A DNA stretch of 42,401 nt from Gemmatimonadota bacterium (GTDB lineage Bacteria > Gemmatimonadota > Gemmatimonadetes > Gemmatimonadales > GWC2-71-9), in contig QHTZ01000017.1 of the NCBI GenBank assembly GCA_003221005.1, positions 1-42,401 of the forward strand, in the 5' to 3' direction. Shown piece after piece: positions 3,082 to 4,182 of the stretch. The number at the start of each line of letters is the position of its first letter. The first letter of the stretch is position 1. The notes beneath the pieces were generated by a model. The model saw nothing but the letters and a program-made list of their open reading frames with translations. It was not told the DNA's origin and made no database searches. A program made the position numbers and the translations under genes.

Positions 3082-3780
3082 ACGCCGGACCGCGTAAACC
3101 AACCCCGGGGTCGTGCGCCGGGGTCACCCGGTGGCCCGCCCGGGCTCGACGCGCAGACGCGGGGCCTCGTGCGAGTGGCGATCGCCGTCGCGACGGGCGA
3201 CACTGCCGCCCTCAAGGAGCGGCTGCTCGGCGCGCGCGCGGCCCAGACGCCCGAACGCTGGGTGGACGAGCTGCTGCTGCAGAGCCTGCTCAACGTGGGG
3301 TACGCGCTCGGACTCCAGGCGTTCGCGGTGTGGCGCGACGTGAGCCCCGCCCCGGCGGGGAGCGAGACCCTCTCGCACGAGGCCTGGCGTGACTGGGCGG
3401 AGCGGGGCCCGCGCGTGTGCGGCGCGGTGTACGGCCGCACCTATCACAAGCTGCTTGTGAACCTGCGCGCGCTGCACCCGGCGCTCGAGACACTCGTGGT
3501 TGTGGATGCCTACGGCAAGCTGATCGGACGGGACGGGCTGGATCTCAAGCGCCGCGAGCTCTGCACGCTCGCTGAGATCGCGGTGCTCGACACGCCGCGC
3601 CAGCTGCACGCCCACCTGCGTGGCGCCCTCAACACCGGCTCCGCCCCGGAAGAAGTGGACGAGGCCCTCGCGCTGGTCGAGCAGGACGTGGGAGCGGAGC
3701 GGGCGTTGCGGGCGTGGGAGCTGTGGGCGGATGTGCGGGGGAGGAACCTTGGAACGCGGAAGTCGGAACGCGGAACATAA
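3079..3780 (+). CDS. Carboxymuconolactone decarboxylase / AhpD-like protein
   Basis: GLDLKRRELCTLA...QLHAHLRGALNTG CMD-family pattern. Confidence 0.85.
   Translation: MTPDRVNQPRGRAPGSPGGPPGLDAQTRGLVRVAIAVATGDTAALKERLLGARAAQTPERWVDELLLQSLLNVGYALGLQAFAVWRDVSPAPAGSETLSHEAWRDWAERGPRVCGAVYGRTYHKLLVNLRALHPALETLVVVDAYGKLIGRDGLDLKRRELCTLAEIAVLDTPRQLHAHLRGALNTGSAPEEVDEALALVEQDVGAERALRAWELWADVRGRNLGTRKSERGT
3101..3131. repeat. Degenerate REP palindrome in the 5' end of the CMD gene
   Basis: aaccccggggtcgtgcgccggggtcacccgg resembles the REP at 6765-6804. Confidence 0.6.
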
Positions 3781-4175
3781 ATGGTGGGTTCGTTGACGGC
3801 GAGCGACCTGAAGCAGCGCACGAAGGAGTTCGCTCTGAATACGGTCCGTCTCGTCGAGCGTTTGCCTCGAGGACGTGCTGCCGAGGTCATCGGCCGGCAA
3901 CTGCTTCGGTCCGGAACGTCCGTCGCGGCCAACTATCGATCGGCACGCCGAGCCCGTTCGCGGAGAGAGTTTATCGCGAAGATGGGGATTGTCGAGGAGG
4001 AGGCGGACGAGAGTTCGCTCTGGCTTGACCTCCTGGTCGAGGCTGGGCTCGTGCCTTCCGCTCAGGTCGCGGCACTGCGCGATGAGGCCGATCAGCTTGT
4101 TGCCATCACGGTCGCGTCTATCAGGACCGCGCGCGGTGGTGGTCGCGACGTTCCGCGTTCCGCCTTCCGCGTTCC
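3751..4175. mobile_element. Candidate element: four-helix-bundle gene bounded by 28-bp inverted heptamer arrays
   Basis: 3751-3778 ggaacgc ggaagtc ggaacgc ggaacat versus 4148-4175 acgttcc gcgttcc gccttcc gcgttcc; 26/28 complementary. Mobility is inferred. Confidence 0.7.
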
Positions 4176-4182
4176 GCGCTAG
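3781..4182 (+). CDS. Four helix bundle protein (TIGR02436 / 23S rRNA IVS protein / bAvd-like superfamily)
   Basis: [10 protein letters not shown]...[41 protein letters not shown] family pattern. Confidence 0.92.

Follow-up and report, generated by a model that had tools for sequence, protein, structure and literature searches.

The DNA analysed here, hereafter the window, is a 42,401-nt stretch of contig QHTZ01000017.1 (C66) from a Gemmatimonadota genome assembly (GCA_003221005.1; 2.79 Mb, 141 contigs, 69% G+C, 93.9% complete). Between a CMD-family gene and obg, it carries a gene for a four-helix-bundle protein of the 23S rRNA intervening sequence protein family (S23p), enclosed by two inverted arrays of GGAACGC-type heptamers (Table 1). 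The arms are 28 nt long, contain four units apiece, and are complementary at 26 of 28 positions, giving a cassette of about 430 bp. The left arm forms the last nine codons and the stop codon of the CMD gene, which ends ...RGRNLGTRKSERGT* with an arm-encoded tail GTRKSERGT, and the right arm codes for the final codons of the four-helix gene. The ATG of the latter lies on the base right after the CMD stop codon and obg starts 8 nt past the four-helix stop codon, so that there is no room for a promoter of its own.

The main features had been named in a preliminary description of the DNA, and the sequence and profile searches confirmed them. The four-helix protein matched TIGR02436 with 79.8 bits (cut-off 24) over profile positions 2–108 of 109 and PF05635 with 55.7 bits (cut-off 33.8), the latter being its sole Pfam family, and its neighbours matched PF02627 and PF01018. 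The closest solved relative was PDB 2rld chain A (phmmer E 6.5e-17, residues 10–118), which places the protein in the four-helix-bundle fold; a single-sequence AlphaFold model was poor (pLDDT 51.6) and was left unused. Membership in HEPN was considered and dropped, as the HEPN survey (PMC3710099) nowhere mentions S23, IVS, intervening, or Avd. In the list of open reading frames (ORFs) and in Pfam, the four-helix frame was the only one between the arms that matched a family; no transposase, integrase, or reverse transcriptase (RT) therefore lies inside the element, as had been claimed.

The window contained 14 dimers of the GGAACGC unit (at most 2 mismatches) where 1.93 were expected, and no shuffle out of 100 reached that number; together with the shifted-interval controls described below, these shuffles rule out a chance origin of the arms. 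An unbiased genome scan placed the arm pair among the best inverted repeats with a loop of 150–2000 nt. In the predicted RNA fold of positions 3735–4195, the arms paired in both the minimum free energy and the centroid structures, with a z-score of only −2.1 for the whole stretch. No terminator-like site (a G+C-rich stem followed by a T run) was found in 3000–5300. Two metatranscriptome runs contained contigs identical to 3832–4102 and 3950–4155 of the four-helix ORF and none from the flanking genes; they are a weak hint that the gene is transcribed, given that DNA carry-over is possible and that contigs cannot show RNA ends.

To place the locus within its family, we scanned the flanks of homologous genes for inverted repeats. 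Forty relatives of the same order yielded 141 family matches outside this genome, of which 121 loci were fetched and combined with the six copies of this genome; two matches were excluded because they belong to an unpublished genome, and 18 because they are fragments that span less than about 80 of the 109 profile positions. For each gene, 260 nt of one side plus 40 nt inside the gene were aligned against the reverse complement of the other side, and intervals shifted by 1100 or 1900 nt within the same loci served as controls. The threshold of 32 was picked after viewing the distributions, and the contrast holds from 28 to 40. A flanking inverted repeat scoring at least 32 was found at 105 of the 119 genes with sufficient flank compared with 3 of 449 control intervals, and at a score of at least 40 the counts were 85 and 0. 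An earlier scan with 130-nt flanks had given 71/124 genes at 28 or more versus 14/910 controls; the flanks were widened because low scorers (L066 and L042) had arms further out.

The arms detected in this way measured 35 nt in the median and were about 90% complementary, and the loops had a median of 460 nt (range 349–572). Tandem periodicity was present in 73 of the 105 arms versus 12 of 635 random 36-mers, with a period of 7 in 47, 8 in 22, 10 in three, and 9 in one, and several of the arms that did not score as periodic have longer compound units. Arm length was independent of period (32 nt at period 7 and 33 nt at period 8), corresponding to 4–5 units.

The same packaging was observed further afield. 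Sampling the phylum more widely gave 30 loci, reduced to 24 by removing three duplicates, one unpublished locus, and two short of flank, and 22 of these 24 genes scored at least 32 (controls, 1/44). A protein search of a plasmid collection gave 26 records, 11 of them from Nostoc. Seventeen were fetched before any flank was viewed; the nine left out comprised two Trichormus records that are near-duplicates, two partial matches, and five more records from Nostoc or Calothrix. These plasmids, mostly cyanobacterial, came from Nostoc, Calothrix, Anabaena, Pseudanabaena, Azospirillum, Gemmatirosa, and others and had flanking repeats of at least 32 at 15 of 17 genes versus 1 of 34 controls, and their arms were plain tandem heptamers (Table 1). 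Inverted arrays thus enclose almost all of the family genes examined, which come from three phyla (Gemmatimonadota-like genomes, cyanobacterial plasmids, and an Azospirillum plasmid), in line with the preliminary description, and the copy in the window is a local instance of a general rule for this family. Arms built from AGTCAGG/AGAAGTC units occurred both in genomes of this phylum (L256, L275, L283; G043, G052, G054) and on Nostocales plasmids (L241, L242, L249), reflecting either convergence or transfer from phylum to phylum.

The plasmid genes lay tightly inside operons in either orientation, at the cas6/cas4 and cmr2/cmr3 junctions, at that of the two ribonucleotide reductase genes, and in conjugation and secretion clusters; the heptamer-armed genes at cas6/cas4 or cmr2/cmr3 were those of Pseudanabaena, Picosynechococcus, and Anabaena 90 plasmids (L238, L239, L245). 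Packaging as a cassette would explain why genes of this family are often wedged in operons, including the cas operons for which they have been listed as possible Cas-associated genes. Within cas loci, 18 genes of this family were counted by Zhang et al. 2013 (PMC3936711), and the family appears among CRISPR-linked genes in a figure legend of Altae-Tran 2023; this published association may just reflect lodging inside operons.

The CMD–obg site proved to be polymorphic. The order asparaginase II–CMD–obg was kept in 30 loci of relatives (this genome included), of which 28 were readable and two ended before the junction. The site was occupied in five (this genome, G002, G005, G009, and G016), empty in 22, and held arrays only in one. 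Among the empty junctions, the sequence was read in nine, and the other 13 were assigned by tblastn coordinates and the absence of a match. In the nine that were read, the CMD stop codon abuts the obg start with no array, and the CMD protein ends ...RGRNL* or similarly, without the GTRKSERGT tail; arms and gene were thus gained or lost jointly at this site. In a tree built from the three flanking proteins, the occupied loci were confined to one clade of 11, inside which the occupied G005 (L012) and the empty G006 (L011) were sisters with a support of 100. Empty sites, which would be missing from a stably syntenic gene, are thus present in close relatives, including a sister genome. The junction of G001 (L017; approximately 1911–1973 of the locus) contained no gene and two non-complementary arrays, GGGGACG ×4 followed by GACCGCC ×4, which may be the remnant of two different elements.

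Comparison of the five occupied sites revealed turnover of the repeat itself. The unit was GGAACGC in this genome and G005, GGAATGC in G002, GCGGAAT/GCGGAGT in G009, and GCGAAGT in G016. Because the opposite arm carried the complement in all five, all units of both arms must have changed in concert. On a broader scale, the repeat period followed the protein tree, in line with the earlier suggestion that the unit might track the protein phylogeny, with 7 changes between periods 7 and 8 compared with a shuffled mean of 17.5 (minimum 12), and none of 300 shuffles was as low. Since kin share labels, this fit demonstrates co-inheritance but does not demonstrate co-adaptation.

Six TIGR02436 genes were found in the assembly, and when their flanks were read by eye, inverted arrays of short units enclosed all six, with a different unit for each copy (Table 1). 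In the flank scan, five of the six scored at least 32; C132 reached only 17 with 130-nt flanks. The unbiased inverted-repeat scan recovered four of the six gene-bearing pairs among about nine pairs with loops of 350–620 nt. On the 1.7-kb contig C39 (locus L004; 1–1722), a full GGACATT hairpin is followed by the four-helix gene, after which the loop and right arm appear once more. A partial 5S 3' end recurs together with the hairpin at C39:1467–1586, which may be a genuine duplication or may have arisen during assembly. On C80, two genes are flanked at 1407–1428 and 2512–2533, a distance of 1.1 kb, by ACCACGC and GCGTGGT arrays; in G002, the same gene pair encloses a four-helix gene with GCGTGGT arms.

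Inverted arrays also occurred without a gene, and these solo hairpins were numerous. The genome contained 216 period-7 and 81 period-8 arrays that were not of low complexity, versus 6 and 1 in 1225 kb of shuffled sequence; in a census of period lags, short lags were dominated by GC-rich low complexity. It thus harbours dispersed heptamer tandem repeats, with head-to-tail 7-nt units in at least three copies, and its unit families include GGGGGAC, GGGGGAA, GGGAAAC, GCGGAAT, and GCGGGAT. Under a strict short-loop definition, 56 array pairs were found in 2793 kb (2.0 per 100 kb; median loop 27.5 nt) and none in shuffled sequence. Solo hairpins and gene-bearing elements alike had 4–5 units per arm, and the 5' arm was purine-rich in 54/56 of the former and 93/105 of the latter; an inverted repeat being symmetrical, this polarity is the same on both strands and says nothing about gene orientation. 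The two forms also draw on the same unit families: all three period-7 arm units of the elements of this genome, the one genome tested, were also present in it as solo arrays.

The preliminary description had regarded the five hairpins of the window as empty copies of the element and the gene-bearing copy as their master. The first idea is supported insofar as arm length, unit number, and polarity are common to both forms. The second is not supported: four of the five use GCGGAAT, one base from the GCGGAAC of the window copy, and one uses GCGGGAA/T.

Solo hairpins and genes can occupy matching sites. The intergenic site corresponding to 23449–23540 in G018 and G021 held a four-helix gene with its own arms, and the tdk–coaE spacer, which contains a solo GGAACGC hairpin in this genome (C118:65552–65620), held in G024 a four-helix gene between ACGTGAGG arms. 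The hairpin at 2623–2727 adds roughly FGMRNAES...FRISHSAL to asparaginase II; the same insert was found in G002 and G009, was degraded in G006, and was absent from G005, G016, and more distant relatives. This was the only solo hairpin within a gene that was compared with orthologues. In 35 of the 56 solo hairpins, a frame stayed open through the hairpin and 150 nt on each side, which we do not count as evidence because open frames are common at 69% G+C. GGGGGAC and GTCCGACC arrays were also located inside long, real-looking open frames (C52:862–1161, C120:37323–38198, C40:8405–8433, and C4:19912–20410) that correspond to E2 acyltransferase linkers, Era, and a RumA-like methyltransferase, the arrays coding for G/R/D- or P/S/V-rich linkers. 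At C38:42294–42978, inverted period-8 arrays (GTCCGACC and TAGACGGG) form two pairs that interleave around a stretch whose translation resembles that of tRNA genes, with no four-helix gene inside.

The presence of hairpins followed that of the gene at the genome level. Six relatives without a family match (G004, G010, G011, G012, G014, and G028; 552 kb sampled) had 10 arrays and no array hairpin, and seven relatives with a match (576 kb sampled) had 63 arrays and nine array hairpins; the sampled genomes are related to one another. The idea that hairpins should be wanting where the gene is wanting therefore passed in the samples taken.

Two soil metagenome runs contained dozens of contigs in which GGAACGC arms enclose short, mutually unrelated loops of 9–38 nt within unrelated flanks. 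Arms of this design are therefore widely distributed, and their loops can vary freely. Summed contig depth over the arms (window 3723–3816 and 4146–4192) was hundreds to thousands of times the gene depth in runs X1 and X2. Apparent joints of position 3777 to 4150, considered as excision products, were rejected, as they stem from different GGAACGC hairpins, whose flanks are unrelated and whose short loops are their own (loose-end agreement approximately 0.5). No metagenome contig was found in which CMD is joined directly to obg.

Table 1. Features of the CMD–obg cassette and solo hairpins in the window, copies of the gene family in the genome, and arm units on plasmids
Feature	Position	Strand	Unit or family	Remark
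CMD-family gene	3079–3780	+	PF02627	Upstream of the four-helix gene
Left (5') arm	3751–3778		GGAACGC/GGAAGTC/GGAACGC/GGAACAT	Purine-rich heptamers
Four-helix-bundle gene	3781–4182	+	TIGR02436 / PF05635 (23S rRNA intervening sequence protein, S23p)	133 aa; cargo in loop
Right (3') arm	4148–4175		Reverse complement: ggaacgc ggaaggc ggaacgc ggaacgt	Four pyrimidine-rich heptamers
obg	4191–5195	+	PF01018 (Obg)	Downstream; start MFIDR...
Solo hairpin	2623–2727		GCGGAAT	In frame inside asparaginase II gene
Solo hairpin	14745–14815		GCGGGAA/T	
Solo hairpin	22171–22313		GCGGAAT	
Solo hairpin	23449–23540		GCGGAAT	
Solo hairpin	35744–35842		GCGGAAT	
Family gene, C66			GGAACGC	Window copy
Family gene, C118			GGGGGAC	
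Family gene, C39			GGACATT	Directly downstream of 23S 3' end and 5S rRNA gene, outside rRNA
Family gene, C135			GCGGTAAGGG	10-mer
Family gene, C52			GGCGGTC-containing	Irregular units
Family gene, C132			TAGACGC-type	Two units
Nostoc edaphicum plasmid			TAGGGAG ×5	
Nostoc punctiforme and Aulosira plasmids			AGTCAGG	
Nostoc C052 plasmid			GGGAACA	
Anabaena 90 plasmid			GGTGACA	
Calothrix brevissima plasmid			GGGTGTA	
Azospirillum plasmid			GGACAGA / GGACGGA	

Two further repeat systems were observed in this genome. In the window, 6324–6359 / 6769–6804 and 6781–6802 / 6982–7003 form a different inverted repeat composed of CCCCGGGGCGACGCCCCGGGG-type palindromes, several copies of which lie within 700 nt. 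At C130:8855–9205, two copies of a perfect 30-nt palindrome flank a RAYT-like ORF (IS200 Y1 transposase-like), a separate system of the type in which repetitive extragenic palindromes (REPs) accompany a REP-associated tyrosine transposase (RAYT).

Taken together, these results make it probable that the element in the window is a copy of a foldback cassette like the ORF-bearing intervening sequences (IVSs) of 23S rRNA, lodged outside rRNA between two protein genes, and we read the gene-less heptamer hairpins as its cargo-less form. Elements of this kind are known, but not in this setting, which proves far more general than had been realised. Such a cassette consists of a purine-rich array (4–5 units of 7–8 nt, approximately 32 nt), the four-helix gene, and a complementary pyrimidine-rich array. 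It would be co-transcribed with CMD and obg, as there is no room for a promoter of its own, and its arms would pair into a stem of about 26 bp. By analogy with rRNA IVSs, for which this has been shown, RNase III may cut the stem, and such cutting would allow the cassette to sit in an operon or in rRNA without ruining it. More weakly, the four-helix protein, a relative of the ring-forming Avd and S23p proteins, might bind the repeated units and help to keep or copy the arrays. We infer this binding or propagation from co-occurrence, from the co-inheritance of period and clade, and from homology to ring-forming nucleic-acid binders.

Several observations weigh against this cassette reading. Of the 119 family genes, 14 had no detectable flanking repeat. 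G031 had eight genes and no tandem array in 100 kb, its arms being long non-tandem inverted repeats, and 71 kb of G013, which had 13 genes, contained no strict hairpin. Of G004, which alone in this genus lacks the gene, just 59 kb was sampled. Both ORF-matching RNA contigs come from a single study and could be carried-over DNA. The unrelated loops of the solo GGAACGC hairpins are awkward for a simple whole-element copy-and-paste, and a target-site duplication was not seen by eye when occupied and empty CMD–obg junctions were compared.

Two tests addressed selection and movement. An RNA stem under strong purifying selection is expected to tolerate G:U far better than other mismatches. The sense-strand mismatches of the arms showed no such wobble preference (144 G:U versus 157 A:C), another point against the cassette reading and a negative result for RNA-level selection on the stem. 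The mRNA stem of the preliminary description is predicted by the fold but finds no backing in a G:U preference. The equal counts imply either weak per-pair selection combined with DNA-level homogenising that restores complementarity, or pairing that matters in DNA. As the place where pairing matters, we favour the transcript, at somewhat short of an even chance, followed by DNA, with the remainder falling to both or to something else.

Movement was assessed with 10 locus pairs, comprising seven within-genome paralogues at different sites, two between-genome pairs, and L078/L079, which showed 94% identity over 3.2 kb and looks like one region assembled twice. Five of the seven paralogue pairs aligned, short arm matches aside, only over the ORF with 69–73% identity, and in the other two nothing aligned, which again counts against the cassette reading. 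No evidence of recent transposition thus emerged, as paralogues gave ORF-only matches or none and no near-identical copies were seen in the genomes checked; any recent spread is likewise unsupported, since paralogues share only an ORF of approximately 70% nucleotide identity and no target-site duplication is seen.

A first alternative is that the arrays are ordinary intergenic hairpins, such as terminators or RNA-stabilising or processing stems, in whose loops the four-helix gene rides as a passenger with no functional tie. Solo hairpins do outnumber genes (56 strict hairpins versus six genes), several abundant unit families of this genome have no gene copy, identical arms enclose unrelated loops, and the tdk–coaE junction holds, depending on the genome, a solo hairpin or a gene-bearing element with a different unit. 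A passenger would hardly account for enclosure of 88–92% of family genes in three phyla versus approximately 1–3% of control intervals, for a repeat period that follows the protein tree, for the complete lack of array hairpins in the 552 kb of gene-less genomes, or for empty CMD–obg sites without any hairpin, where arms came and went with the gene; nor is there a terminator-like site with a T run at the locus. We consider this explanation improbable.

A second alternative treats the element as a kind of DNA transposon, the arms being terminal inverted repeats (TIRs) with subterminal tandem units, as in eukaryotic Foldback elements, the four-helix protein an unconventional DNA-binding mobility factor, and the solo hairpins miniature non-autonomous copies, as REPs are to RAYT. 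The lack of an RNA-type wobble preference in the inverted ends, the presence/absence polymorphism with clean empty sites, the genome-level co-occurrence of gene and hairpins, the co-inheritance of unit period with protein clade, and the recurrence of the elements' own units as solo arrays in the same genome all fit this view, and the accessible text of Warrier 2016 (PMC4990558) cites a proposal by Ralph and McClelland of a mobile IVS with a mobility ORF. Among the hallmarks of TIR transposons and miniature inverted-repeat transposable elements, terminal inverted repeats were found; target-site duplications and near-identical dispersed copies were not, the latter being absent from all genomes checked. 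The family has no known catalytic domain (Pfam gives only PF05635), and solo hairpins with the same arms have unrelated loops. A transposon-like element is thus distinctly unlikely as well.

That the gene is a stray Avd of a diversity-generating retroelement (DGR), with arrays unrelated to it, can be dismissed as extremely improbable. According to the accessible text of PMC10053308, PF05635 is homologous to Avd and accompanies DGR reverse transcriptases more often than any other family does. However, this genome (93.9% complete) has 0 RVT_1 (PF00078) matches, a template/variable repeat pair is absent from the vicinity, and the neighbours of the gene are CMD and obg.

The foldback cassette thus remains our preferred reading, and a tentative step beyond it, which we think may well not hold, would make the four-helix proteins the trans-acting partner of tandem-unit hairpins. 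The protomers of a ring would each read one 7–8-nt unit, consistent with arms of near-constant 4–5 units, and the protein would keep, homogenise, or copy the arrays; the STRR heptamers of cyanobacteria, those of Xanthomonas and of this phylum, and the rRNA IVSs would then form one protein-plus-repeat selfish system without RT or transposase.

ORF-bearing 23S IVSs and bacterial heptamer repeats have both been described for more than 30 years without explanation, and the family comprises thousands of genes of unknown function. The results suggest that the two are faces of one type of element. They provide a bench-testable hypothesis for the family, namely that the protein binds its own flanking units and that the stem is processed, and the cassette provides a defined model of how the arms of hairpin repeats are kept complementary while their units keep changing.

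Comparison with known systems places the element more precisely. Rickettsia palindromic elements, reportedly described by Ogata in 2000, resemble the asparaginase II insert at 2623–2727 in that hairpin repeats lie in frame within protein genes; they differ in being of unrelated sequence, without tandem-unit arms or an associated gene. REP/RAYT (REPIN) systems likewise combine dispersed hairpin repeats with a single-copy gene flanked by inverted repeat copies. However, RAYT is a Y1 transposase with known chemistry, whereas none is known for the four-helix protein, which matches PF05635 and no Y1 (IS200-like) transposase family, and REPs are unique palindromes instead of tandem units. Avd of DGRs shares the homologous four-helix-bundle fold and is, according to the accessible text of PMC10053308, ring-forming, basic, and nucleic-acid-binding. 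A homopentamer from Xanthomonas is cited in the accessible part of Warrier 2016 (PMC4990558). In contrast to DGRs, the present genome has no RT match and no template or variable repeats.

Among bacterial heptamer repeats, the short tandemly repeated repetitive (STRR) heptamers of cyanobacteria were reportedly described by Mazel in 1990, and an STRR in a helix of RNase P RNA is said to have been reported by Vioque in 1997. According to the accessible texts, Rehm 2015 describes GGGAATC of Xanthomonas and GGGGA(C/T)T of Nostoc, with 70–75 inverted pairs per Xanthomonas genome, and MacGregor 2015 describes TAACTGA of Beggiatoaceae, cyanobacteria, and Bacteroidetes. Like the arrays studied here, these repeats are tandem 7-nt units, mostly intergenic and often in convergent inverted pairs, and they occur in taxa in which the plasmid search found the family gene. 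Unlike here, where the arrays enclose the gene, the accessible parts of Rehm 2015 and MacGregor 2015 make no link to the S23p family, and a literature search outside subscription journals and supplementary files found no paper linking this family to flanking tandem arrays outside rRNA.

The ORF-bearing 23S IVSs of Leptospira, Coxiella, Brucella, and Xanthomonas, as far as their accessible descriptions go, share with the present element an ORF of the same family in the loop, a size of approximately 0.43 kb, a stem made from inverted ends, and a sporadic distribution among relatives. An S23p-family ORF in the loop of an inverted-end stem is likewise what was found here, the stem being that of the predicted fold. 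The differences lie in the setting and the arms: the cassette sits between protein genes and not in helix 9, 25, or 45 of 23S rRNA; no Rfam family reached threshold anywhere in the window, so that a 23S helix-tip insertion was not found; the six copies of this genome have six different arm units; and part of each arm is translated as a gene tail. In the accessible text of Warrier 2016 (PMC4990558), the Coxiella 23S IVS is a 428-nt selfish element with an S23p ORF in the loop and RNase III sites in the stem, and the old idea of the IVS as a mobile element whose ORF serves mobility is cited there. As a rule, three tandem GACAGAT heptamers, their number varying by strain, precede the ORF of this IVS (PMC4990558). 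These heptamers occupy the 5' portion of the stem, in which RNase III cleaves, much as four heptamers form each arm of the present element, and the Coxiella IVS is its closest precedent.

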